This document shows positions 1,723 through 33,300 of a stretch of 64,000 bases of DNA, one piece after another. The position numbers were made by a program, and so were the translations under genes. The notes beneath the pieces were generated by a model. The model was not told the DNA's origin and ran no database searches. It saw only the letters and a list, made by a program, of their open reading frames with translations. The stretch comes from Bdellovibrionia bacterium (GTDB lineage Bacteria; Bdellovibrionota; UBA1018), in assembly GCA_045805065.1 (NCBI GenBank), contig JBJMMA010000060.1, forward strand, positions 1-64,000. The letters run 5' to 3'. Numbering within the stretch: position 1 is the first letter of the stretch; every line of letters starts with the position of its first letter.

Positions 1723-3729
1723 ATGAGCTCTTTGCCCAAATATCAGAGGTTCATCGGAAGACTCCTCACCCAAACCTTGGCGGTTTCGCTCTCGTTCTCA
1801 ATGACGTTTGGGACGTTTGGCGGATATGAATTATCGATTCAGAGCGCTCAGGCTGCGACTAAGCAAGAAGTCGATGGCGCCAAAGCAGAAATGCAGCAGG
1901 CTGAAAGAGATCTTAAGTCTCAAGAATCTGAGCTTAAGGAAAAAAAGAGTGAGTTAAAGGCCGTCGAGAGATCGATGGATGACGGCGATAATGCGAACTG
2001 TAGCCTGTGCCGTCCTAGTTGCACTGCAGGTTGTACTGACGAATTCGTGGCCACTTTGACTATCGCAAAAGATGCGAATCAGATGAGAGCCTTTCGTTCT
2101 GGCTCGGTTGATTCTTGCACCCTAATTTACGAAGAAAAGGGCGAAAGTATCCCATCTGCATGTAAAGCTCAGGTCCTCAAATGTACCTCGGTTGCGAAAG
2201 CACGCAGAAAGAAGCAGCTCGAAAGAGACATTAAAGAGCTTACCGACAGCATTAAAGACACAAAGAAAGAATTATCCGTAAAGCGCGAAGCATATAATAG
2301 CGCAAATGGTGATTGCGCCGACTGCGCTCTTGAAGCTCAAAAAGCTCAAATGCGCGCGATGTATCGCGAGCCTTCGACAGGTGAGTTGATTGTTGCAGGT
2401 ATCGGTGCAGCGACTCCTCTTCTGATGGGCGGACTTGGCGCTTACATGGGCATCCGCGGGATGAATCAGTACACCGGGATGTACAACAACTATCTCAATA
2501 CTTGCTCGACGATGGGCATTCCATGCTCCGCTCCAGGAATGGGCGGAATGGGAATGGCTGGCATGATGGGCGGTATGGGCATGGGAATGTACGGAATGGG
2601 CGGCCTTGGAATGCTCGGTATGGGCATGGGCGGCGGCTCACTTCTGGGTGGAATTGTCGGTGGTATCGGCGGCGGCATCCCAGGTTTCGGAATGATGGGA
2701 ATGGGCATGCCAGGTATGGGCATGTACGGTAACGCTCTTGTTGGCGGCGTCGTCGGTGGTATCGGCGGCGGATTCCCTGGTTACGGCATGGGCATGATGG
2801 GCATGGGTATGCCTGGAATGGGCATGTACGGCATGGGCGGTTTCGGAATGCCTGGCCTCGGAATGCTCGGAATGGGTATGGGCGGTGGTGCCCTCGTTGG
2901 CGGAGTTGTCGGTGGAATCCCAGGTTATGGCATGGGCATGATGGGCATGGGTATGCCTGGAATGGGCATGGCCGGTCTCGGAATGATGGGAATGGGCATG
3001 CCTGGCCTCGGTATGATGGGTATGGGCATGTACGGTAACGCTCTTGTTGGCGGCGTCGTCGGTGGTATCGGCGGCGGATTCCCTGGTTACGGTATGGGCA
3101 TGATGGGCATGGGTATGCCTGGAATGGGCATGTACGGCATGGGCATGGGCGGTCTCGGAATGCCTGGCTTCGGTATGCCCGGAATGGGCATGTACGGAAA
3201 CTCCCTTGTTGGTGGAGTTGTCGGCGGTATCGGTGGCGGCATGGGCGGCCTCGGTATGCCTGGCATGGGCATGTACGGCATGGGTTTCCCTGGCATGGGC
3301 ATGGCCGGAATGGGCGCACTTGGAATGGGCGGCGTAGGGATGATGGGCGCACCCGGTATGATGGGTAGCTTGTTTCCAAGCGGTTCTATGACCGGTGGTT
3401 GGGCTATGCCTAATACGGGTTGGGGCACGGGCTTCAATTCGGGCTTATTTCCAAATGGCAACAGCCAGTACGGAAACCTCTATAACCAATCTATGCAGTA
3501 CGCGATGCAACAGGCTCAGCGTCAGCAATCCGATCTTATGCTTGCTCAACAACAAGCCTGGGAAGCTCAGCAGCGTGTAGGCCAGATCATGTCCAGTGGC
3601 GCCGGCTATGGCGGCGGTGGCATCGGTTTCGGAAATATCGGCGGAAGCTTTGGTGGCAGCTTTGGAGTCGGCGCAGCCGGATTCATGGGCTACGGCTTAG
3701 GCACCGGCGGCGGAATGCGCTCCTTCTAA
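1723..3729 (+). CDS. Secreted protein: signal peptide, Cys-rich/coiled-coil N-domain and long Gly/Met-rich glycine-zipper repeat region; putative precursor/substrate of the downstream SdpAB-like proteins
   Basis: ORF 1696..3729 with likely start ATG 1723 after GAGGGA; AQA|A cleavage site; 11 Cys; five L(V/L)GG(V/I)VGGI motifs in GMG-rich sequence. Confidence 0.85.
   Translation: MSSLPKYQRFIGRLLTQTLAVSLSFSMTFGTFGGYELSIQSAQAATKQEVDGAKAEMQQAERDLKSQESELKEKKSELKAVERSMDDGDNANCSLCRPSCTAGCTDEFVATLTIAKDANQMRAFRSGSVDSCTLIYEEKGESIPSACKAQVLKCTSVAKARRKKQLERDIKELTDSIKDTKKELSVKREAYNSANGDCADCALEAQKAQMRAMYREPSTGELIVAGIGAATPLLMGGLGAYMGIRGMNQYTGMYNNYLNTCSTMGIPCSAPGMGGMGMAGMMGGMGMGMYGMGGLGMLGMGMGGGSLLGGIVGGIGGGIPGFGMMGMGMPGMGMYGNALVGGVVGGIGGGFPGYGMGMMGMGMPGMGMYGMGGFGMPGLGMLGMGMGGGALVGGVVGGIPGYGMGMMGMGMPGMGMAGLGMMGMGMPGLGMMGMGMYGNALVGGVVGGIGGGFPGYGMGMMGMGMPGMGMYGMGMGGLGMPGFGMPGMGMYGNSLVGGVVGGIGGGMGGLGMPGMGMYGMGFPGMGMAGMGALGMGGVGMMGAPGMMGSLFPSGSMTGGWAMPNTGWGTGFNSGLFPNGNSQYGNLYNQSMQYAMQQAQRQQSDLMLAQQQAWEAQQRVGQIMSSGAGYGGGGIGFGNIGGSFGGSFGVGAAGFMGYGLGTGGGMRSF
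2713..3144 (+). repeat. Near-identical 126-bp internal duplication (2713-2838 and 3019-3144, offset 306 bp)
   Basis: The two copies differ at one synonymous position (ggc/ggt). Confidence 0.9.
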
Positions 3730-3779
3730 GCAAGCCAGGCTAAGCAAGCCAGGACTGGATTTTAAATTGGAGGTCCCCC

Positions 3780-4310
3780 ATGGATGGCGGAGCCTTAAAG
3801 TGGATCAAGGCCGCGCTCTCAGTCTTTGTTGTATTTCAGCTGACTGTGGTCTTGCTTGCCCCGAATGGCGATCATTATGTGGGGGCGACTCTCGAACCAT
3901 TCGTCGAGCCTTACGCGAATTTCTTTGAGCTCACCAATAAATGGAGCTTCTTTGCTCCAGAGCCAGGGCCTCCTCCTGTCTTTGTCGAATACGAGATCCT
4001 GGGCGCAAATGGCGAGTCGATTCACAAGGCACGTTTTCCGGAAGAGAAGAGTCCTTACTTCCTAAGAGATCGGCAAAACCGCCGGATCGCATCCGTTGAG
4101 TTCATGATGCCGGGCGAGGACCGCGTGGAGAAGGTGATGGTGCCGTATCTTTGCGGGAAGAACCCTGAGGCGCAAGCCATCAAGCTTTGGCGCGTGGCCT
4201 ATACCGTTCCTTCCATGGAAGATGTCGCCAGCGGAAAACGCCAGTTTGGCGATGAGGTCAATCTCGAGCGCCGGGTGGTTTCTCATACTTATTGTGAGAG
4301 GAAGATATGA
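3780..4310 (+). CDS. SdpA/DUF5819-like membrane-anchored protein
   Basis: N-terminal hydrophobic helix then WSFFAPEP motif typical of SdpA/DUF5819 proteins; GGAGG RBS; overlaps the next gene (ATGA). Confidence 0.7.
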   Translation: MDGGALKWIKAALSVFVVFQLTVVLLAPNGDHYVGATLEPFVEPYANFFELTNKWSFFAPEPGPPPVFVEYEILGANGESIHKARFPEEKSPYFLRDRQNRRIASVEFMMPGEDRVEKVMVPYLCGKNPEAQAIKLWRVAYTVPSMEDVASGKRQFGDEVNLERRVVSHTYCERKI

Positions 4311-5299
4311 TTTCAATGCTGAGAGCGCAGGCGGGTCGTGCGGGAGCAGCTTGGAATCACTTCTGGTTTGAGGCTGAAACGGGTCCGCAGATGCGGGTGT
4401 TTCGGACCTGCTTTGCGACGCTGCTTTTTATAGCCTATTCAATCCGAAGCCTCGATCTTGAGCTCTTTTACTCGGATCATGGCCTGATCAAGCTCTCGGT
4501 CTTGGATGAGCTTGTTCCGATGAGTTACCGGTATTCGATCTTCCAGCTCTTTCCAAGCACGACGGCGCTTTGGATCGGGAATACGGTTTTTCTGGGAAGC
4601 CTTCTTGCGCTCATCTTTGGATTTTACCCAAGGGTTGCGGCGCTGGTGGCATCGATTCTTCATATTTCTTTTTTGCATCGCAATCTTGGGGCCTCTTACG
4701 GGATGGATACGATTGCGACGTTCTATCTGCTCTACCTTTGCCTGGCTGATTACCGTGACCGTCCCCAGGCCAGCGCGCTGGCCCGTTCTACGACGGAGTT
4801 TGTTCCTGACTTGCGATCGGTTGTGGGATCCATGGCTTTCAGGCTGTCTCAAATCCAGCTTTGCGTGATCTACGGGTATTCCGGATTACATAAGCTTCGT
4901 GGAATTTATTGGTGGAAGGGTGAGGGGATCTGGAGCGTTCTGGCTAATTTCCAGATGGCCCGCTTTGATTTCAGCTGGACCGCGCACTTTCCGTTCTTGC
5001 TGACTTTCATGAGCTTTGTCAGCCTGTTCTGGGAAATCTATTTTCCAGCCCTGATCTGGATCCGCCCTCTGCGCTATCCGCTTTTGGTCTTTGGCGTTTT
5101 ATTCCATCTGGGGATTGGAATTTCGATCAGCATTCCATTCTTTGCCGCAGTCATGATTCTGATCTATATTCTCTACGTTGACGCAGCGCATTGCGCTATG
5201 GCGGAGCGTTATTTTCTAGCGAAGATTCAATCGATTCACTTTTTTCGTAAAGGTTTTCGTAAAGTTTCTTTGGGACACACCGAAGAGATCAGTGTCTAG
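4307..5299 (+). CDS. HTTM-domain (SdpB/vitamin K-dependent carboxylase-like) membrane protein
   Basis: WNHFWF start, HRN...GMD, QIQLCVIYGYSGLHKL..YWWKG, WE..FP and FHLGI motifs; multiple TM helices. Confidence 0.85.
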   Translation: MISMLRAQAGRAGAAWNHFWFEAETGPQMRVFRTCFATLLFIAYSIRSLDLELFYSDHGLIKLSVLDELVPMSYRYSIFQLFPSTTALWIGNTVFLGSLLALIFGFYPRVAALVASILHISFLHRNLGASYGMDTIATFYLLYLCLADYRDRPQASALARSTTEFVPDLRSVVGSMAFRLSQIQLCVIYGYSGLHKLRGIYWWKGEGIWSVLANFQMARFDFSWTAHFPFLLTFMSFVSLFWEIYFPALIWIRPLRYPLLVFGVLFHLGIGISISIPFFAAVMILIYILYVDAAHCAMAERYFLAKIQSIHFFRKGFRKVSLGHTEEISV

Positions 5300-24113: not shown

Positions 24114-25928
24114 ATGGTAGTTAAACAAGCAACTGGAGCCGAGAGCTCCAAAAAATCCGCTCCAAAGAATCAGAACTGGATGGACGAGTTCCTGAAAGAT
24201 TCTGACGCAGGTGCGGAAGATACGTCCTCCAACCACCTCAGCGGCGAAGAAAACTTCGCTGAACTCTTCGAAGCGTCCCAACGCGAGCAAGAGATCAAGG
24301 AAGGCGAAGTTGTGGACGGAACCGTCGTGGCACTCAGCCCTGAGTACGCAACGGTCGACATCGGCTACAAGTGCGAAGGACTTGTTCCTCTCCAAGAATT
24401 CAAGGACGCTCAAGGCGTTGCTCACGTTGCAGTGGGCGATGTTGTCAGCGTTTACCTCGAGCGCATGGAACTCGAAAACGGCTTCATGCTCCTTTCGAAG
24501 GACAAGGCTGAAATCATCCGCGCTTGGGACGAAATCTCTCAGGCTTGTGAAAAGGATCAATTGGTTGAAGGTACCGTCATCGCTAAGGTGAAGGGCGGCC
24601 TCTCCGTCGACATCGGCGTCAAGGCATTCTTGCCAGGCAGCCAGATCGACACCAAGCCAGTCAAGAACCTCGATAAGTTCTTGGGCAAGAAACTCAAGTT
24701 CAAGATCATCAAGTTCAACAAGAAGCGCGGCAACATCGTTCTCTCCCGCCGTGCAGTCGTTGCTCAAGAGCGCGAACTGCAACGTGCTGAAACGCTCGCA
24801 AACCTCCAAGAAGGCACGATCGTTTCCGGCACCGTCAAGAACATCACCGAATACGGTGCGTTCATCGATCTCGGCGGCATGGACGGCTTGCTCCATATCA
24901 CCGATATGAGCTGGGGCCGCATCAAGCACCCAAGCGAACTCTTCGCTGTTGGCGACGAGATCAAGGTGAAGATCCTCAAGTACGATCGCGAGAAGGAACG
25001 TGTTTCTCTCGGCCTCAAACAAGTTTCTCCGAACCCATGGGACGATGTTGAATACAAGTTCCCAGTCGGCGTCACTGTTAAGGGCAAGGTTGTCAGCCTC
25101 AAGGACTACGGCGCATTCGTTGAACTCGAAGACGGCGTTGAAGGCCTCATTCACGTCAGCGAAATGTCCTGGACGGAGCGCGTGAAGCATCCATCCAAGC
25201 TCATCAACGTCGGCGACGAAGTTGAGTGCAAGGTTCTCGAAGTTGATCCAAAGAACAAGCGCATCAGCCTCGGCCTCAAGCAGCTCCAACAAAATCCTTG
25301 GGACGAGCTTGAAGTGAAGTTCCCAGTCGGAACGATCGTTGAAGGCGAAGTGAAGTCTGTCACCGACTTCGGCGTGTTCATCGACATCGGCATGGGCATC
25401 GATGGCCTCATCCACATCAGCGATGTGGCATGGACCAAGAAGTTTGCTCATCCTTCTGAGAAGTACAAGAAGGGCGACAAGGTCCGTGCAGTGGTTCTCG
25501 GCATCGACAAGGCGAACGAAAAGTTCTCCCTCGGCGTCAAGCAACTCGAGCGCGATCCATGGGAATCCATCAAGTCCCGTTATCGCCAAGGCCAAGCTAT
25601 CGAAGGCGCTGTGACCAAGCTCACCGACTTCGGTGCATTCGTTGAGATCGAAGAAGGCGTTGAAGGCCTCATTTACGTCAGCGAAATCGCTGATCACCGT
25701 ATTGAGAAGCCAGCCGACATCCTCAAAGTGGGCGACAAGGTCCGCGCTGAGATTCTTTCGATCGAACCGAAGGAACGCCGCATCGGCTTGTCCATCAAGC
25801 AACTTGGTCGTTCTGAAGAGCGCGCTAACTACGAAAAGTATGCTGGCGACGCTAACAAGAAGAACACCATGGGCGATCTCTTCGGCGACAAGCTGAAGGC
25901 AGCTCTTAAGCCAGGCAAGGACGAGTAA
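24114..25928 (+). CDS. rpsA: 30S ribosomal protein S1
   Basis: Six S1 repeats (VDIGYK.EG, AFLPGSQID, YGAFIDLGG.DGLLHITDMSW, RISLGLKQ); strong codon bias. Confidence 0.98.
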   Translation: MVVKQATGAESSKKSAPKNQNWMDEFLKDSDAGAEDTSSNHLSGEENFAELFEASQREQEIKEGEVVDGTVVALSPEYATVDIGYKCEGLVPLQEFKDAQGVAHVAVGDVVSVYLERMELENGFMLLSKDKAEIIRAWDEISQACEKDQLVEGTVIAKVKGGLSVDIGVKAFLPGSQIDTKPVKNLDKFLGKKLKFKIIKFNKKRGNIVLSRRAVVAQERELQRAETLANLQEGTIVSGTVKNITEYGAFIDLGGMDGLLHITDMSWGRIKHPSELFAVGDEIKVKILKYDREKERVSLGLKQVSPNPWDDVEYKFPVGVTVKGKVVSLKDYGAFVELEDGVEGLIHVSEMSWTERVKHPSKLINVGDEVECKVLEVDPKNKRISLGLKQLQQNPWDELEVKFPVGTIVEGEVKSVTDFGVFIDIGMGIDGLIHISDVAWTKKFAHPSEKYKKGDKVRAVVLGIDKANEKFSLGVKQLERDPWESIKSRYRQGQAIEGAVTKLTDFGAFVEIEEGVEGLIYVSEIADHRIEKPADILKVGDKVRAEILSIEPKERRIGLSIKQLGRSEERANYEKYAGDANKKNTMGDLFGDKLKAALKPGKDE

Positions 25929-25987
25929 TCGTCTTAAAATCTAAGGACGAGTAATCGTCCTGCGATACTAAGACGAGTAATCGTTCT
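25917..25987 (+). repeat. Three direct repeats of (A)AGGACGAGTAATCGT starting across the rpsA stop; each can form a GACGA-GTAA-TCGTY hairpin
   Basis: Read directly from the sequence. Confidence 0.85.
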
Positions 25988-26094: not shown

Positions 26095-26122
26095 TCAAGT
26101 TAAAAACTTAAATATCCGAAAT
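26095..26122 (+). promoter_or_regulatory. sigma28-like promoter
   Basis: TCAAG-N15-TCCGAAAT, 8 nt before ATG 26131. Confidence 0.6.
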
Positions 26123-26130
26123 AGAATGAG

Positions 26131-27246
26131 ATGAGTCCATGGACAAAAACCATCTATTTTCTGTCTATTCTCTTAGCGCTCTCAAACTCAGTTTGGGCGG
26201 CTACTAAAGATGCTTACGTGACTATAGGCGTTGCCAGAACCGCAACTTCTGACGATATCAAAAAGGCTTATCGCAAGCTCGCCATGAAGTATCATCCGGA
26301 CCGAAATCCGGGGAAAGACGCAGAAGAAAAGTTTAAAGAGATCAAACAAGCCTACGAGCTTCTCTCTGATTTCGATAAGCGCGAAGCATATGACAAGATG
26401 GGATCTGCTCCTGGTACGCTTTTCGACAATCCAAGGCAATTTCGGTTCACCTCATCCAGCTCGTCAAGTACAGCGGATCGACGCACTCAATCTCAAGCGA
26501 ATCCTTCTCAGTCCTCAACATCAAGTCGGGCCAATTCGTCGAGCTTTCAGCAACCTCGCGGTCCCTTTGACCAAACTAACTTCAATAAGGCGTATGCATT
26601 AGCAATAGCTCCGATGTCTGAAGGTGGAATGGGTATGGACGCTTCGAGTGCCAAATTATGGGCCACAGATGTTGCTCACCAGTGGCTTTCAGTCAAGGAT
26701 CTCGAGTTTTGGATTAAGAAGTACAAGGCCGCAGTTCGTGTTGCCTTGGATCCTGTATCAAAAGGCGGAATGGAGTATTCTCCAGAGTACGCAAAGACTT
26801 GGGCGCATGATTGTGCCAACAAATTTGGAACGTTGAAGGATTTCAATTTTGTGATCGAAAGATACAGATACGCGATTCGATTTGCCTTGAGGCCGGTTTC
26901 AGAAGGTGGCTTAGAAGTTGTTCAGGTAAGTGACGCTCGTCAATGGGCTATTGACACCGCTAACAGCATGGGAGCGTTGAAGGATCTCAAATTTTGGATC
27001 GAAAAATACGAGACCGCGATCAAATTCGCCTTGAAGCCCTCTGCAAAAGGCGGAATGGGGTTTTCTCCCATGGATGCAAAAAACTTTGCGATCAATAGCG
27101 CTAACAAATTTGGAACATTGAAGGATCTCAAGTTCTGGATAAAAGATCAAAAGCTTGCGCGTGCTCAGTTAAATAAGGGCAGTGGAAATTCCAATTCGAG
27201 ATGGGGTTGCATTTTCGATAAGTTAATGTCCGCTCTTATGGACTAA
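26131..27246 (+). CDS. Signal-peptide-bearing J-domain (DnaJ-like) protein with four ~47-aa repeats
   Basis: Sec signal (VWA|A); [32 protein letters not shown]; repeats P.S.GG...A..WA...KDL.FWI..Y. Confidence 0.85.
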
Positions 27247-27251
27247 ACTTG

Positions 27252-27542
27252 TCATGCAGCGTTTTTGAGTCCATCTTTGTACTGATCCGGAAGCTTATCT
27301 ACAACTTGTACGTTTTGAGCATTCTCAGGAAGTTCGATTAAATGATGCTCAACGTTTTCTTCTTCAGTGGATGCCGTAGCGACCTGGACGCCGTAAATAT
27401 GCTTTCCTGAAGCGTGATGAAATTCGCCCACTTTCCAGCGGATCATTCGGCCGTCTGTCTTGAGCTCTTTGGCTCCCCGGATTGTGGTCGCTTGTGTGGC
27501 TTTGTCGGTCGGTACTTGCGGAAGATCGTAAGTAATAAACAT
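27252..27542 (-). CDS. Hypothetical protein (96 aa)
   Basis: ORF fills the gap between convergent genes; no recognised motif. Confidence 0.6.
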   Translation of the reverse strand: MFITYDLPQVPTDKATQATTIRGAKELKTDGRMIRWKVGEFHHASGKHIYGVQVATASTEEENVEHHLIELPENAQNVQVVDKLPDQYKDGLKNAA

Positions 27543-27585
27543 GTGCCTATGTGTTGCAAAACCAGCGCTAGGTAGGCGAGCGACT

Positions 27586-28053
27586 TTAGGTCCAGTATTG
27601 ACTCATGAGTTCCGAAATCCATTTAGGCTGAAATACAGAGCCACGGGGAGCGAACTCTTTCACCCAAGGCTTGATGTCGAGAACTGGCGTTCCATCGATT
27701 GCATCGAGTCCCTCCAGCTGTACGGAAAGTCCCTCAACTTTTAAAATTCGACAAATGGTAGTTCCGATTTGATTGGGTCGATTCTTTCCGCGTTGAGCGA
27801 AGATGCCAACTTTTGGCCAATCAGGATTATTGCGTGGATGGCGGGCAGTTTTTTCGACTTTAGCAGGATCGACCTGATTCATGTGAAACAGAATTTCAAC
27901 ATGTGAGAAATCTGAAAGTCCCGCCAAAGACTCTGGAGTAAATTGAGACGCATCCAATTCGACAAAAGCCTTTTCTTTGTCCCAGTGGTCGTCTTCAGCT
28001 TTCTTGCGAGTTGAGTGAACCCAACCAATGATCTTCCAAGTGATGGTTCGCAT
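27586..28053 (-). CDS. TsaA/TrmO (UPF0066)-like SAM-binding protein
   Basis: IG.VHS, L.GL.DFSH, VGIFAQRG.NRPN.IG, GLDAIDGTPVLDIKPW. Confidence 0.88.
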   Translation of the reverse strand: MRTITWKIIGWVHSTRKKAEDDHWDKEKAFVELDASQFTPESLAGLSDFSHVEILFHMNQVDPAKVEKTARHPRNNPDWPKVGIFAQRGKNRPNQIGTTICRILKVEGLSVQLEGLDAIDGTPVLDIKPWVKEFAPRGSVFQPKWISELMSQYWT

Positions 28054-28163
28054 GGCTGCAATATAGACAGACCATCTGCACGAAATCCAGAAGCTTCAAA
28101 AAATGCGAACCTCGCTGTGCAGAGCTGATGGTTATAAATTTATATAGTTTATAATTCTTGTGT

Positions 28164-28221
28164 TCAAGTATCTTTCATGCGCGTTCGAATAATTAAAGCT
28201 TACATTCAATGTCGTCGAAGT
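28164..28221 (+). promoter_or_regulatory. Two tandem sigma28-like promoters
   Basis: TCAAG-N15-TTCGAATA (28164-28191) and TAAAG-N15-GTCGAAGT (28194-28221). Confidence 0.5.
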
Positions 28222-28242
28222 GAAGAATGGGGGAACGTCTGC

Positions 28243-30693
28243 GTGCTGAGAAAAACAAGATTTTTAAATCTATTTTTTAACGCGTGGATTCTAGTTTTCG
28301 CTTCTTTCATTTCCTTTCCAGCTTTTTGCGATGTCTCTCATCTAGGGTACGACGAGTATAAGGCATTGGCTCAGGAACTCGCCCCAAAGGTGAATCTGTT
28401 TCGTGACGCTTGGGCGACGGATCCCAATACGGAGTTCTTTGGGGGTACGGTCCGAGACTATCTCTACTGGCTTAAAGGGCGTTTTAGAAATGCCTCCAGT
28501 TCGGAGGAGGCCCATAAAATCGCTGAGTCCCTTCGTTCTCTACCTATGATTGATATCCGGGATTTCGTGATTGGAGAGTCGGATATCGACGCTGTCAGCC
28601 GAACCGCATTGCCTCTGGATCCCGCTCGGTACGGGGTTAAGAAGATCGATTTTATCGACAAAGAGCGTTTCAATCCTTCAACCGAGCTCGGTGCTTCGGA
28701 GATCCGGCAAGGATTCATTCCCGTGGAGAAAATCCGCCTTGGGAAAAGCGGGTTTGTTCGTTGGGATAATTTTGGCGACGGCATTCGAGAGATTTATGTT
28801 GGCCGGCCCACGGTTCACATGCCGGATCCCGAGGCATTTAAGACTACGTTTTATGCGCGAAAGAAGGCCAACCACCCATTACTCCTCGCCATCCGATATC
28901 TCAGGACGCTTGGGATTAACTATTTTAACGAGAACGGCTCGGAATATCCCAATTTTTCGAAGCTGATGAGCATCGATCCAGAGTCTGAGCGGACCGTGAA
29001 AGAAGCCATCGCGAGGACGATCAAGACCAGGGATCTGGGCGAGTATTTAAAAAATGGACTTTTTCAGCAGCGGTTCAATGAAACGACGCAAAAGGCCTTT
29101 CGCTCCTATACGAATCCCACAGCGACTCATATGCTCTTTAAAGAATTCGGCATGGATCGAATCATTGGTGAGTACTCGGATAAGCTTGATCCTGTGAATC
29201 AGTACCTTTTTGCGCGAGCTCCGAAAGATCCTGCGCGGATGAGAGAGCAGCTCCAAGAGCTCGGAACGACCTCTGAGACCTTGTTTTCAAAGCCATCTCG
29301 AGAGTTTTCCGATCTCAACCTCTATCACGGCACTGAAACCGAGGAAGCTTTCCGCGCGATTCTTTCTCAAGGGATATTGCCATCGACGGCGGGCGCAGCC
29401 GGAAAAGGGCTTTATGCCGTCGATCAAACCAATCTCTCTTTCGCGGCTCAATGGGGCAGGAGTCCCGATCGTGTTGTGCGATTCCAGGTCAGTCCGGATG
29501 CGCGGGTCATCGACACTACCGCCGGCGAGGGTGCAAGGCTTTTGGCAAAGTTTCATGGCGATTTTGACGCTCTGGCCGATGCAACCGGAGCGGACATTCT
29601 GAGGTATCCGTACAGCGTGCGGGCCTATGTCGTAAAAAACAGCGCTGTTCTGGGAAAGCCTTCAGGCCATCTGCGGGAGTTCCTCAGCTATGGGCGATTA
29701 TTGGATCGTGCAAAAGAAGCTGACACAATCGATTCGTCTCTAAACGTAATGAAGAATGCGCAGGTCAGTCATTTCAATCGTGATGAGATATCGCGAATCA
29801 TTGATGAGATTCCGTATTTCAAAAAGCCAGAAAACGCCAAATTGCTGAGCCTTGCGCGCGGTTTGGCTTCTCCCGGATTATCGAACGACGTGATGCTATC
29901 GAGTTTTCGTAGTGCAATCGCATTAACGGCGTTGGCAAAGGATGCTACCAAACAAGTAGCCCTGGAAAAGACGATGGACGGAGCAACGACTGCGATCAAT
30001 GATCTTGTTCGGGTTCTCTCACAGGATCAGCGGCTGACGGACGCGCAAAAGAACGATCTTCTCAAACGATTGGCGGATGCTGTCTTCGATTCGGCCAATC
30101 CCAAGGGAAACCAAGCGGTTCGATCCGCGCTTGTTACACAGATCGTCCGGACGCCCTCTGACTTTGGACAAAGAGTGCGGGTGTATCTGAACAACCCCCT
30201 TCGCAAGATGGTGGCTGGACTGGGCGCTGGGATGGCAACGACATGGGTGCCGCTTGGTCTTCTCTATCATGATTCAAGCTTGATTACGCATACGGGAATC
30301 GGATTGGGTGCGGTCTGGTCCATGTTGTTTGGCGCAACGCTCAAAGATGCAAACGCGGAATACCGCCAAATTTTTGGAGGTAATGACCGTGAACTCCGGA
30401 AAAATCAAGTGCGCGCGATCAAGTCCCTGAAGCAGTATTTTGAGTCGCTGGAGCAAGGAAAATCCTTTTCATTGTCGCCTTATCAAACAGTGGGGCAGAG
30501 TAAGTTTTCACCTGCGTCAGGGGCAAGTTGCATCTCTCGCAATCTCCGAAAGTTATGGTCGTATGACCAGAATATCGCCATGCTGGCGTTCGGCGCGGCC
30601 GGATACGCGGGTTATCATGGGGTAGATGCATTGATCGAATTTATGTCCCAAAAGGTATCACCCAGCCCCGCACCTCAAAAAAAGGCAAATTGA
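28243..30693 (+). CDS. Secreted multidomain protein: nucleotidyltransferase-like domain, ADP-ribosyltransferase (PARP-like) domain and hydrophobic C-terminal helices
   Basis: Likely start GTG 28243 after GGGGG; signal peptide; FFGGTVRDYL...SDID (Pol-beta NTase signature); LYHGT...IL..GI.P...G.GLY (ART H-Y motif). Confidence 0.7.
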   Translation: MLRKTRFLNLFFNAWILVFASFISFPAFCDVSHLGYDEYKALAQELAPKVNLFRDAWATDPNTEFFGGTVRDYLYWLKGRFRNASSSEEAHKIAESLRSLPMIDIRDFVIGESDIDAVSRTALPLDPARYGVKKIDFIDKERFNPSTELGASEIRQGFIPVEKIRLGKSGFVRWDNFGDGIREIYVGRPTVHMPDPEAFKTTFYARKKANHPLLLAIRYLRTLGINYFNENGSEYPNFSKLMSIDPESERTVKEAIARTIKTRDLGEYLKNGLFQQRFNETTQKAFRSYTNPTATHMLFKEFGMDRIIGEYSDKLDPVNQYLFARAPKDPARMREQLQELGTTSETLFSKPSREFSDLNLYHGTETEEAFRAILSQGILPSTAGAAGKGLYAVDQTNLSFAAQWGRSPDRVVRFQVSPDARVIDTTAGEGARLLAKFHGDFDALADATGADILRYPYSVRAYVVKNSAVLGKPSGHLREFLSYGRLLDRAKEADTIDSSLNVMKNAQVSHFNRDEISRIIDEIPYFKKPENAKLLSLARGLASPGLSNDVMLSSFRSAIALTALAKDATKQVALEKTMDGATTAINDLVRVLSQDQRLTDAQKNDLLKRLADAVFDSANPKGNQAVRSALVTQIVRTPSDFGQRVRVYLNNPLRKMVAGLGAGMATTWVPLGLLYHDSSLITHTGIGLGAVWSMLFGATLKDANAEYRQIFGGNDRELRKNQVRAIKSLKQYFESLEQGKSFSLSPYQTVGQSKFSPASGASCISRNLRKLWSYDQNIAMLAFGAAGYAGYHGVDALIEFMSQKVSPSPAPQKKAN

Positions 30694-30715
30694 AATCGAT
30701 ACGGATCTCAGGCTT

Positions 30716-30743
30716 TCAAGTTTCTTCCGCAAATTGACGATAA
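30716..30743 (+). promoter_or_regulatory. sigma28-like promoter
   Basis: TCAAG-N15-GACGATAA, 7 nt before GTG 30751. Confidence 0.65.
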
Positions 30744-30750
30744 ATATGAC

Positions 30751-31677
30751 GTGAGAAATATTCGGTCGACATGCGCTTTTCTTCTGGCTGCGTGCCTAAG
30801 CTTTGCGACTTCGGCAGGAGCTGAGTCGGCGCATCACCAAGAGCCCATCATTGATGTCGTGTTTGATCTCGACGATACGCTCATTCGCTGGGTTCGCCCG
30901 GATGAGGCAAAATCGGGTACGCTGATTCCGGCGATGAGCCAGGGCAAACCTTATTTGTTTCGTGTCCTGGATGGTACGCCAGAAATTCTTGAATCTCTCT
31001 CTCGCCAGCCAGGAGTGCGGATCAGTTTTTTCAGCATGGGGGAGCGCTCCCGCAACGAGACAGTCCTTTCGCAGCTGAAGCTACCGAGTGGTCGGACGGC
31101 GCGCGAGATCGCTTACCGAGTTTTGTCCCTGGAGGATGCTACTCAGGTGAATGGAGAGTCTCACAAGGATCTCCGGCTGGTGAATCCTGATCTTGAACGA
31201 GTTCTGATCGTGGATGATCAGAAAAATGCACCCATACCCGGTCAGGAGAGAAACGTGCTTTGGTTGGGTGGCAAGCCTGAGCACTTTTACGAATCCTTGC
31301 ATGATACTCCTGGCTCGGGTGCAACTTGGAAACCCGCCAGTCCCGAAAAGTTCGTGGAATATCGGAATCGCCTGGCTTACGCACGTGGGCTAATCGACCG
31401 CGTTCTGACTGAATCGAAAAAGTCAGGGTCAATAGGCGTTGTTGAAGCTCTCGCGGCTCAGCAATGGTCTCGGGATTCTGCCGGGCTTCCTGTGTTTCGA
31501 TCCGGACTGCGATCGGATCTGTCACTTTATCGCAAGGGTGCTGCTGAGTTTCACGCCGTCAACTCCCGATATGGTTTTACTACCGCATATACCGGGCCAG
31601 AGCGCCGTGCCTGTCTTTCGGAGGCAATTTCTGAGTTTTTAAAAATCCCGTACGTTGAAAGGCGCGTAAAGCGGTAA
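30751..31677 (+). CDS. Secreted HAD-superfamily phosphatase, FCP1/NIF-like
   Basis: Signal peptide (AGA|E); VVFDLDDTLI, FFS, KDLRLV..DLERVLIVDD. Confidence 0.8.
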   Translation: MRNIRSTCAFLLAACLSFATSAGAESAHHQEPIIDVVFDLDDTLIRWVRPDEAKSGTLIPAMSQGKPYLFRVLDGTPEILESLSRQPGVRISFFSMGERSRNETVLSQLKLPSGRTAREIAYRVLSLEDATQVNGESHKDLRLVNPDLERVLIVDDQKNAPIPGQERNVLWLGGKPEHFYESLHDTPGSGATWKPASPEKFVEYRNRLAYARGLIDRVLTESKKSGSIGVVEALAAQQWSRDSAGLPVFRSGLRSDLSLYRKGAAEFHAVNSRYGFTTAYTGPERRACLSEAISEFLKIPYVERRVKR

Positions 31678-31723: not shown

Positions 31724-31734
31724 AGTTGAGTGGA

Positions 31735-33300
31735 ATGACTAGACTCCTTTTCTTACTGATTTTTATCGCTCAGAGCCAATCAGCTTTTGGGTCAGATTCC
31801 ATTAATGCGTTGCTCGCGCGATTTGACAGGGATCCACGTTCCATTTTGGATGAGCCGCCGCCGTACGTAGACGGAGGCACGCCAGAGAAGAAACGATTTT
31901 CTCAAAAAGCGATTGAAAGCGGTGAAGCCATCGCTGAGCGTAACCGCGAGCGCTCGCGGTTTTGCATGAATTGGAACGGCAAGCAAACTTGCCTGAGCGC
32001 TCGCGCTGGAACGAGAGCAGAGATTCAAGGCTCCGATCTTCCTGAGGCGCTGGTGGATCACGGTCCTTCCAATGGAGCGACAGGGATTGTTCGAGGACTT
32101 GAAGAGCTGGAGAAGCTCGGATTGATGCGAGCGAAGCTCTCAACGCAGCCTTGGTCGGATGACTACTGGGGGCATTATAAAGGGATTGTCGGAGCTCGCT
32201 ATGCTGACCCGGGATTTCCGGGCGCGCATCCTGATCTTGCTGCTGGTTTTAACTGGAAGGCCAATTATCAATATGTGCGTAATCATCCGGCTGAGCAAAT
32301 TGCTCGCAAAGGGACGGACGACGATGTGAAACTTCTTTCTCCCTCTGAAAAGTACGAGCTTCTGATTGGTGACAAAAACTTTTCGATCACCGAAAGGATG
32401 TGGCGGCGAGGTGAGAGATACTATGAGAGCGAAGGCAAGGTGGATCTCTGGATGGGAATCTGTCACGGATGGGCGCCTGCGGCTCTGATGCTTCCAAGAC
32501 CTTCAAACATGCTCCGACTCAAATCAGCAGATGGGACTCACGAAATTAAGTTCTATCCATCAGACCTAAAAGCGCTTGCCGATCTTCTTTGGGCAGAAGG
32601 TGAGTACGATAGCCGTTTTATTGGAGGGCGTTGTGATGAGTCTCACCCGCGCCAGGATGAGAATGGACGAATCATCAGGCAGGAGTGCTTTGATACAAAT
32701 CCGGGATCCTGGCATCTCGCGATCACAAATCAGCTGGGCATTGCTCATCGTGGACTGATCATGGATGCATCCTATGATGAAAGGATCTGGAATCAGCCTG
32801 TTCTGGGTTACACTTATCACTATTTCAATCCCAAGAGTATGAAACAAGTGGATTCATTTGCCGAGGCTCGGGTGTCGATGGATGCATTCGCTGGTGATAA
32901 ATTCAAACGCTATCGTTCGAAAAAAACGAAAAGCGTGGTGGGAGTCGTGATGGATACTACTTATGTGGCTGAAACGCATCCCTCGCATGCGCATGAGGAT
33001 TCAGCGGCAAAGGACCGTCTGCGCACGATTCGCTACATTTACGATCTCGAGCTGGATTCCAATGGGAGCATCATCGGAGGCGAGTGGTACATGAATCAGC
33101 ACCCGGATTTTCTCTGGGTACCTGCCCAGGGTACGCACGCCGTTTCGGATTACGAAAAGCTAGCGACAGGAACATGGGGTGCGAGCGGATTTTTGCCTGA
33201 CTCTTGGCTATCGGCTGCTCGTGAAGCTTCAGAAGATGGGCTTCCTTTGGCAAAAATAATCGAAGTAATGATCTCTAAATCAGCTTCCATGCCGCAATGA
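31735..33300 (+). CDS. Secreted transglutaminase-elicitor-like protein
   Basis: Signal peptide; PWS.DYW, LSPSEKY, WMGICHGWA, D.NPG.WH, IWNQPV, Y.YDLELD..G.IIGGEW, HPDFLW, as in the oomycete GP42-type TGase family. Confidence 0.8.
   Translation: MTRLLFLLIFIAQSQSAFGSDSINALLARFDRDPRSILDEPPPYVDGGTPEKKRFSQKAIESGEAIAERNRERSRFCMNWNGKQTCLSARAGTRAEIQGSDLPEALVDHGPSNGATGIVRGLEELEKLGLMRAKLSTQPWSDDYWGHYKGIVGARYADPGFPGAHPDLAAGFNWKANYQYVRNHPAEQIARKGTDDDVKLLSPSEKYELLIGDKNFSITERMWRRGERYYESEGKVDLWMGICHGWAPAALMLPRPSNMLRLKSADGTHEIKFYPSDLKALADLLWAEGEYDSRFIGGRCDESHPRQDENGRIIRQECFDTNPGSWHLAITNQLGIAHRGLIMDASYDERIWNQPVLGYTYHYFNPKSMKQVDSFAEARVSMDAFAGDKFKRYRSKKTKSVVGVVMDTTYVAETHPSHAHEDSAAKDRLRTIRYIYDLELDSNGSIIGGEWYMNQHPDFLWVPAQGTHAVSDYEKLATGTWGASGFLPDSWLSAAREASEDGLPLAKIIEVMISKSASMPQ

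Follow-up and report, generated by a model that had tools for sequence, protein, structure and literature searches.

The window analysed here is a stretch of 64,000 nucleotides from a Bdellovibrionia bacterium (contig JBJMMA010000060.1, positions 1 to 64,000; G000:C60:1-64000). Three of its genes, called genes 1, 2 and 3 below and located between positions 26095 and 31677, encode proteins that combine a signal-peptide-like N-terminus, a domain of cytoplasmic type and, near the C-terminus, a short amphipathic helix that begins with a cysteine. The analysis showed this cysteine-helix element to be genuine: it is a terminal tag, apparently not described before, that is present on exported enzymes of cytoplasmic type in several Bdellovibrionota families. 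A sequence-only reading of the window had placed the element at positions 27208, 30529 and 31612, where it was recovered, and had proposed that it acts as a sorting tag. The enrichment of the tag on exported enzymes of cytoplasmic type bears out one part of that proposal; the other part, delivery into prey and the chemistry of the cysteine, we infer.

The tag was defined as C-[ILVFM]-x3-[ILVFM]-x2-3-[ILVFM] lying no more than 30 amino acids (aa) from the C-terminus or just after the signal peptide. The genome containing the window (4.22 Mb in 262 contigs, 94% complete) yielded 3892 genes with a self-trained gene-calling model. Signal peptides were assigned by a permissive heuristic of our own, not by SignalP, and 1195 of the 3722 complete genes were positive. 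When genes were sorted into four classes by signal peptide and by a leaderless sigma28-like promoter site, the tag was present in 27 of the 45 genes having both, in 29/1150 with a signal peptide only, in 0/15 with a site but no signal peptide, and in 39/2512 other genes. After removal of an expanded family of approximately 25 paralogs, the contrast was 19/35 versus 22/1142 (odds ratio 60, Fisher p 5e-21). The proteome-wide motif test suggested by the sequence-only reading thus gave enrichment among signal-peptide proteins with a sigma28 site.

Patterns of a cysteine and hydrophobic residues are low in information, the matrices used in this work were trained on the same genome, and loose patterns give many false positives; P0109, for example, was ruled out as a tagged protein since its cysteine is the catalytic residue of an Ntn hydrolase. 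Nevertheless, a chance pattern or a gene-calling artefact is hardly credible. The regular-expression test used the motif of the earlier reading, and its odds ratio excludes chance for the genome of the window. The pattern also recurs elsewhere: in G001, a genome of the same genus, 7 of 17 promoter hits lead by eye to proteins with a signal peptide and the tag (five of the 17 have no usable frame), and a cysteine lies in the last 25 aa of 70 of 80 gene 2 homologs, usually as C-x3-[FLY], against a chance expectation of 3-21%.

A curated, profile-based set comprised 52 tagged proteins, 16 of them supplied by the expanded family. Four high-scoring rows that appeared unrelated by eye (two DUF4423-like regulators, C240_5547 and C13_63) and membrane proteins were left out, and three lower-scoring rows were included by eye. 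The element had been described as C-terminal, which holds for 31 of the 52 proteins; in the other 21, it is located at the opposite end, just after the signal peptide. Almost all C-terminal tags (30/31) are 10-21 aa away from the end and have no membrane segment after them, the tag of gene 2 being the exception. A matrix built from C-terminal tags ranked 8 of 10 N-terminal tags among the top 5% of interior cysteines; with the roles exchanged, 12 of 18 were so ranked, the seeds of both matrices sharing the pattern by construction. In one homologous pair, the tag is present at opposite ends, and paralogs of genes 2 and 3 bear variants that keep the C-x3-hydrophobic register. Judged from its natural placement rather than from fusions, the tag therefore appears to be portable to either end.

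The tag forms a predicted amphipathic helix of 6-12 residues with a hydrophobic moment of 0.42, compared with 0.27 around interior cysteines, and its net charge is mostly 0 to +2. A lone cysteine beside such a helix resembles known S-acylated anchors, and the tag cysteine might be S-acylated or otherwise lipidated, so that together with the helix it would form a membrane anchor; the cargo would then be displayed on the predator surface or vesicles and handed to the prey membrane with no disulfide carrier. In related bacteria, cysteine-bearing sorting signals are processed for surface attachment (10.1101/2023.06.07.544157; statements on this and the other papers cited refer to the portions of them that were covered). 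Several features argue against a lipid anchor. In the 21 N-terminal tags, an A-x-A-like site is followed, by eye, by polar, charged or proline residues before the cysteine, and they therefore lack the lipobox of signal peptidase II substrates, in which the cysteine directly follows the hydrophobic core. The C-terminal tags are followed by neither a membrane helix nor a basic tail, the net charge is low, and the tag could be linked to no candidate acyltransferase. Moreover, surface display alone would give no access to DnaK, DNA or tRNA. Lipidation was accordingly considered unlikely, although it is the foremost of the alternatives.

Tagged proteins were also found to be poor in cysteine. Outside the tag, they contain 0.15 cysteines per 100 aa versus 0.94 for the 325 other exported proteins compared and 0.96 for 1330 cytoplasmic ones, an approximately six-fold depletion. 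The contrast persisted when one cysteine was also removed from each control (p 1e-13, with paralogs not being independent), and the 36 tagged proteins outside the expanded family gave a similar value (0.17 per 100 aa, 22 with a lone cysteine). The tag cysteine is the sole cysteine in 29 of 50 tagged chains, and an internal disulfide is therefore impossible in those chains. The depletion is the strongest hint that the thiol of the tag reacts with something outside the chain.

To characterise the cargo, 40 proteins were scanned for families (36 of the 52 tagged proteins and four variants), and 16 of them matched a Pfam family over the cut-off. The matched families were mTERF, a flavin/Fe-S demethylase fusion, protein kinase, Macro, RelA, galactokinase, ATP-grasp, GNAT, PepC, AAA+, C26, alpha/beta hydrolase, PLD, UDPGP, NIF and DnaJ. 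By established knowledge, 11 of these 16 cargoes need cytoplasmic cofactors or targets, and the periplasm lacks ATP, DnaK and cytoplasmic cofactors. Three housekeeping paralogs (galactokinase-, UDPGP- and ClpA-like) carry neither the signal peptide nor the tag. In total, tagged cargoes number in the dozens and reach 1594 aa. The mTERF match (E 1e-41) is that of the bacterial protein L012 (G000:C202:8229-10526), which also has a signal peptide and is tagged at its C-terminus; mTERF proteins are mostly known from organelles. The family of approximately 25 paralogs, 16 of which are in the tagged core set, had no Pfam match and is spread over contigs C247, C7, C62, C188, C213, C172, C176, C106, C222, C9 and others, with four members in tandem on C247. 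By eye, its members show nucleotidyltransferase-like and ADP-ribosyltransferase (ART)-like motifs and W-x-x-H-P repeats; they are possibly a second nucleotidyltransferase-ART family that expanded in the genus.

The nature of the cargo bears on two further explanations. The tag could select cargo for one-step secretion, through the type II or Tad system, into the prey periplasm, where the enzymes would use leaked ATP, NAD and CoA and never cross the prey inner membrane (PMC10482364). Small molecules are indeed the substrates of several cargoes (galactokinase, UDPGP, acetyl-CoA transferase), and type II secretion and Tad operons are among the four secretin loci of the genome. However, other cargoes (J-domain, mTERF, CCA-like nucleotidyltransferase, Fic, protein kinase and ClpB-like) depend on macromolecules, and the flavin/Fe-S cargo, in which no twin-arginine consensus was apparent by eye, therefore needs a compartment that supplies its cofactors. 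One-step secretion was thus regarded as improbable, somewhat more so than lipidation. Alternatively, the proteins might act in the predator's own envelope or be non-functional recent fusions, with the cysteine-helix serving dimerisation or retention. Two tags could indeed pair by a disulfide, and the genes are patchy with fast turnover: the gene 3 family is present in 14 of 61 class genomes, and gene 1 is missing at its site in G001. Against this stand catalytic motifs that are intact and invariant, a tag that is kept across domain swaps, cofactors that are by established knowledge absent from the periplasm, and the fact that dimerisation would not require many unrelated families to gain a signal peptide and a tag independently. 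A role in the predator itself was considered very improbable.

The most likely reading, held to be modestly probable, is that the element is a sorting tag with a reactive thiol and serves a two-step route that delivers proteins into prey. This proposal starts from what was observed, namely the statistics, position and portability of the tag, the cysteine depletion and the cargo types. In the first step, as the N-terminal sequences suggest, the Sec system would export the enzyme into the predator periplasm, where it would be largely inert because ATP, NAD(P), acetyl-CoA, DNA and DnaK are missing. In the second step, a periplasmic receptor or carrier would bind the terminal helix by its hydrophobic face and react with the cysteine, most likely through a mixed disulfide; the chain would be kept cysteine-poor so that only the tag reacts. 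A contact-dependent conduit would then pass the cargo into the prey, whose reducing cytoplasm would free it. Inside the prey, the cargoes would serve to disarm the cell and remodel its interior through RNA and protein modification, chaperone capture, dephosphorylation, and nucleotide and sugar metabolism. The receptor, the conduit, the destination and the cysteine chemistry, that is, every step after export, we infer from these observations. Whether there is, as a whole, an undescribed Bdellovibrionota pathway in which a one-cysteine helical tag at either end attaches Sec-exported enzymes covalently to a route of injection, possibly the Tad pilus, for release by the reducing prey cytoplasm was judged to be evenly balanced.

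The Tad pilus would be the best co-regulated candidate conduit. A sigma28 site was found 5' of the Tad Flp pilin gene in the genome, and in B. bacteriovorus, Tad is under FliA control and its pilins are required for predation but not for adhesion (PMC5430801). The genome also contains four DsbA-like genes and exported CxxC/CPC proteins, none of which was linked to the tag, and a Pfam scan of twenty untagged sigma28 genes revealed no obvious receptor. The 61 tagged or variant genes whose neighbourhoods were inspected are spread over many contigs, with 27 of the 61 adjoining another. No recurrent or co-directional small immunity partner was seen around the 61 genes, in a view that unrelated immunity genes would escape; the absence of immunity genes may be explained by the proposed inertness of the cargo in the predator periplasm. 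The suggestion of the sequence-only reading that the three window genes form a coherent effector island did not hold. In G001, the small reverse gene comes directly after rpsA and gene 1 is missing from between the two; gene 1 is therefore a separate insertion or loss.

The occurrence of the tag in other genomes was studied. Homologs of gene 3 (34-85% identity) mostly keep the terminal cysteine-helix, which was recognised by eye in 8 of 12 database homologs and not in P0007, P0008, P0012 and P0013. Homologs of gene 2 vary from 494 to 1357 aa, and their conserved columns stop near residue 515; the tag thus persists across domain swaps. Four of the ten homologs with no terminal cysteine are named partial. 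The gene 2 homologs with names come from Bdellovibrionota metagenome-assembled genomes. One further record, titled Sulfitobacter (L079), contains a gene 2 homolog and tagged neighbours; its promoter hits are the same as those of G142 (family f22), and the title is probably a mislabel. In the 34 named loci, unrelated neighbours were tagged at either end, with J-domain, AAA+, ABC1 kinase, acyltransferase and hydrolase cargo. In a set of 120 promoter loci drawn from 20 genomes, families f22, f13 and f18 showed tags; no clear tag was seen in 30 sigma28 loci of family f21, in 12 of f24 or in a 200-kb sample of G038.

Cultured species were also represented. Random samples contained tagged proteins identical to records of B. 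bacteriovorus (a Fic protein), P. exovorus and Bacteriovorax stolpii (an acetyl-CoA hydrolase/transferase). The form found in B. bacteriovorus, including the Fic protein, is C-x-x-[VIP]-F. The cluster of the Fic protein takes in the HD100 record CAE79880.1, which has the same lone cysteine and an intact Fic-like motif and was equated with Bd2033 by name only. Bd2033 is the only Fic row of a predation-cycle proteome and belongs to an entry-peak cluster of 40 proteins, with levels of 6.27 in attack phase, 8.04 at 45-60 min and 4.83 at 7 h (PMC12546842). Searches of the ESM Atlas with the signal-plus-tag segment of the Fic protein and with the repeats of gene 1 gave no usable match, a result that shows neither absence nor novelty.

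The promoters of the tagged genes were compared with those of the genome. The loose promoter pattern alone was not enriched genome-wide (560 matches at spacer 15 versus 543-570 at spacers 11, 12, 14, 17, 18 and 20), but it was enriched among sites that are intergenic and immediately precede the start of a gene (34 at spacer 15 versus 5-14 at ten other spacers). With a matrix, 71 genes had a site 4-10 nt before the start codon versus 13-43 at six other spacers, a comparison that is partly circular because the matrix was trained at spacer 15 on the same genome. Its consensus (TTAAG-N15-[GT]CCGATAA-like) agrees with TTAAG-N16-CCGATA, the consensus of 92 of 140 attack-phase promoters in B. bacteriovorus (PMC3627812). 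A strict site followed 5-9 nt later by a start codon was present in 224 of 251 phylum genomes, with a reversed control giving mostly 0-1; family f23 is an exception, such a start codon after the -10 box being found in only 4/13 genomes. Apparently, sigma28 genes have leaderless or near-leaderless transcripts, and leaderless attack-phase transcripts may be a general trait of the phylum. A membrane hexapeptide-repeat acyltransferase-like gene lies behind a leaderless sigma28 site in both G000 (L340, G000:C181:25823-26638) and G067 (L176).

Sigma28-like sites were present at all three window genes, as the sequence-only reading had claimed, and the FliA-type site is strong at genes 1 and 3 and weak at gene 2. 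Across the genome, a leaderless sigma28 site precedes 28 of the 52 tagged proteins versus 65 of 3892 genes overall. The claimed link between site and tag thus stood in the genome of the window and failed in G116, where none of six tagged candidates (0/6) has a site; the coupling is lineage-dependent. The sites of the tagged genes share the consensus of the FliA attack-phase regulon, to which Tad also belongs (PMC3627812, PMC5430801). The leaderless layout and the coupling to tagged cargo are absent from the parts of those papers that were covered, and the tagged genes of G116 differ from the regulon in having no sites.

This lack of sites in G116 is one of several points that weigh against delivery of tagged enzymes into prey. 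The loose tag pattern was not enriched in G116 (22/488 versus 34/513; 1.6 Mb sampled, 40% of the genome, with about the last quarter thinly covered), and the narrower pattern C-x-x-[LVIP]-F, which was found in 8/488 versus 0/513 with 0.8 expected and with six hits that look genuine and two that are doubtful, was picked after the candidates had been seen. No receptor, carrier or recurrent neighbour family was detected around the 61 tagged genes or in the 34 related loci. The tag cysteine lies at the edge of the hydrophobic face, approximately 130 degrees off (face centred 82-187 degrees from the cysteine), unlike that of the Mia40 signal. With respect to cargo, 24 of the 40 scanned proteins had no family over the cut-off, and the PLD, alpha/beta hydrolase and peptidase cargoes could act outside the cytoplasm. 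Exported status depends on the heuristic signal-peptide calls, and the predatory lifestyle of the source organism is presumed from phylum membership. In B. bacteriovorus, Bd2033 appears on the predatosome sheet with modest fold-changes (1.63 and 1.37, p 0.057; PMC2797640), and the proteome table of PMC12546842 lacks Q6MP29, another tagged protein of HD100.

The tag was compared with known systems. Literature searches, which did not extend to subscription journals and bioRxiv supplements, gave no description of it; term searches of the parts covered of PMC13689555, PMC12419801, PMC12228718, PMC2797640, PMC10482364 and PMC12546842 did not find it, and no sorting-signal model of NCBIfam matched among the 40 scanned proteins (E<=0.05). 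AB-type toxins such as those of cholera and typhoid are assembled in the periplasm, where a terminal helix and a disulfide hold the enzyme after its export by Sec; reduction in the target cell then sets it free. The proposed route of the tag would be similar in design. In contrast to these toxins, no recurrent neighbour resembling a B subunit lies near the tagged genes, the tag may also be N-terminal, and the cargoes are numerous and large.

The closest design analogy for a thiol-trapping receptor is Mia40. Its mitochondrial intermembrane-space sorting signal (MISS), or targeting signal (ITS), is likewise an amphipathic helix of about nine residues by a docking cysteine that works at either the N- or the C-terminal end (PMC2806287). 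However, the Mia40 system is eukaryotic and its substrates are twin-cysteine proteins (CX3C/CX9C) with the docking cysteine on the hydrophobic face, whereas the tag cysteine is usually alone. No receptor with an active-site cysteine and a hydrophobic cleft was tied to the tag among the CPC/CxxC proteins and the four DsbA-like genes. In design, the tag thus resembles the mitochondrial ITS signal and AB toxins and would be a member of neither.

Like the tag, signals of the MYXO-CTERM type are short motifs with an invariant cysteine that occur on many unrelated exported proteins of one lineage, with the machinery encoded elsewhere, but they are tripartite (motif, membrane helix and Arg-rich tail) and strictly C-terminal (10.1101/2023.06.07.544157). 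The tag has neither property; it occurs at either end and on cytoplasm-type enzymes. Polymorphic toxins, including the broken-hairpin type and CapCone-2 of Bdellovibrionota, likewise join a constant trafficking element to interchangeable effector domains in a predatory context (PMC12419801). The tag differs from them in being a peptide rather than a domain, in being joined to a Sec-type signal and in having no linked immunity genes that were seen.

A recognisable tag would bear on how predator enzymes reach the prey cytoplasm: in the parts covered, predator papers report export by Sec and a prey inner membrane that stays intact, and they name no translocation signal (PMC2797640, PMC10482364, PMC13689555). 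A lone-cysteine sorting signal that works at either end has no match among the bacterial export-signal models or papers searched. The tag would provide a criterion by which the intracellular effectors of any Bdellovibrionota genome could be listed and, if the proposal is true, would define a phylum-wide intracellular effector repertoire that includes members in B. bacteriovorus. It would also make the proposal directly testable in a tractable strain, by the change of one cysteine in Bd2033, and could serve as a bait for pulling down the delivery machinery. The cargo set is, in addition, a source of new enzyme families, such as nucleotidyltransferase-ART fusions.

The three window genes and their features all lie on the forward (+) strand. 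Gene 1 (26131..27246, 371 aa) is preceded by a sigma28-like promoter at 26095..26122 (TCAAG-N15-TCCGAAAT, matrix score 14.8), with the ATG 8 nt further on. Its product has a predicted signal peptide (aa 1-23), a J-domain with an intact HPD (aa 27-88, 26209..26394; Pfam PF00226 DnaJ, E 9.5e-25) and four repeats of approximately 47 aa with no assigned family (aa ~143-330, 26557..27120). The tag follows at 27208..27243, with Cys360 12 aa from the end. The repeats recur in two paralogs of the genome and in one database protein, and all three end with the cysteine-helix tag.

Gene 2 (28243..30693, 816 aa) is preceded by two weaker tandem sigma28-like sites at 28164..28221 (28164-28191 and 28194-28221, scores 8.1 and 9.2, respectively); the second is TAAAG-N15-GTCGAAGT, with the start codon 21 nt later. 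The product has a predicted signal peptide, a nucleotidyltransferase fold, an ART-like fold, a helical region, hydrophobic segments and the tag. It matched no Pfam family, and alignment A2, when searched against PDB sequences, found nothing informative. An alignment-based model (mean predicted local distance difference test, pLDDT, 79.7), which replaced a single-sequence fold (pLDDT 39.9), was therefore compared with known structures. Its residues ~41-321 match nucleotidyltransferases of the CCA/poly(A) polymerase type (4wby, Z 11.0, root-mean-square deviation (rmsd) 3.8, 192 residues aligned), and six class II nucleotidyltransferases are among the top eight structural matches. In the nucleotidyltransferase domain (aa ~35-323, 28345..29211), GG..RD and S-D-x-D are invariant or nearly so in 81 sequences. 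Judged from the model, this domain is a predicted class II (CCA/poly(A) polymerase-like) nucleotidyltransferase with a head-neck fold.

The ART domain that had been proposed beside the nucleotidyltransferase was less firmly recovered. In the ART-like domain (aa ~340-478, 29260..29676), H362, G389 and Y391 are invariant, and the structural matches of the region within the whole-protein model are weaker, with Z 7.3-7.8 (the middling range of the tool), rmsd 3.7-4.5, 120-131 residues aligned and Foldseek E 0.002-0.1. The tag of gene 2 (CISRNLRKLWS, 30529..30561) is atypical, since Cys763 lies 54 aa from the C-terminus and a hydrophobic stretch follows. The only other cysteine is Cys 29, located at the predicted end of the signal peptide.

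Gene 3 (30751..31677, 308 aa) is preceded by a sigma28-like promoter at 30716..30743 (TCAAG-N15-GACGATAA, score 18.2), with the GTG 7 nt further on. It encodes a predicted signal peptide, an FCP1/NIF-type HAD phosphatase with an intact DLDDT (Pfam NIF phosphatase, E 3.7e-11) and a C-terminal tag. Residues D41, K139 and D156 are invariant in 14 sequences, and the DxDxT motif I, the motif III lysine and the motif IV DD of HAD enzymes are all present. The tag (CLSEAISEFLK, 31612..31644) contains Cys288, 21 aa from the end and the sole cysteine of the mature chain. The Sec-type signal peptides and the J-domain and FCP1-like phosphatase assignments of the earlier reading were thus borne out, the former by the heuristic.

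Several neighbouring features of the window were observed. Three copies of a 13-mer, GACGAGTAATCGT, lie approximately 27 nt apart at 25920-25985, the first overlapping the last codons and the stop of rpsA. Between genes 1 and 2, at 27252-28053 (-), two small untagged genes with ~46-47% G+C, like gene 1, encode a 96-aa protein of no known family, which is also found beside rpsA in G001, and a protein with a TrmO N-terminal domain. Directly after gene 3, at 31726-33300 (+), an exported protein of the transglutaminase-elicitor family is encoded; it has five cysteines, no tag and no sigma28 site of its own. Further upstream, at 1801-5299 (+), a three-gene membrane-protein operon with no Pfam match lies behind a strong sigma28-like site (20.9), and its last two genes presumably resemble the SdpA/SdpB (HTTM) pair in their motifs. 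This operon was considered as tag machinery and dropped, since its third gene, used as the one query, occurs in 30 of 121 phylum genomes and in 3 of 22 genomes of the tag-bearing family f22. The same third gene is present in up to five copies in genus g100.

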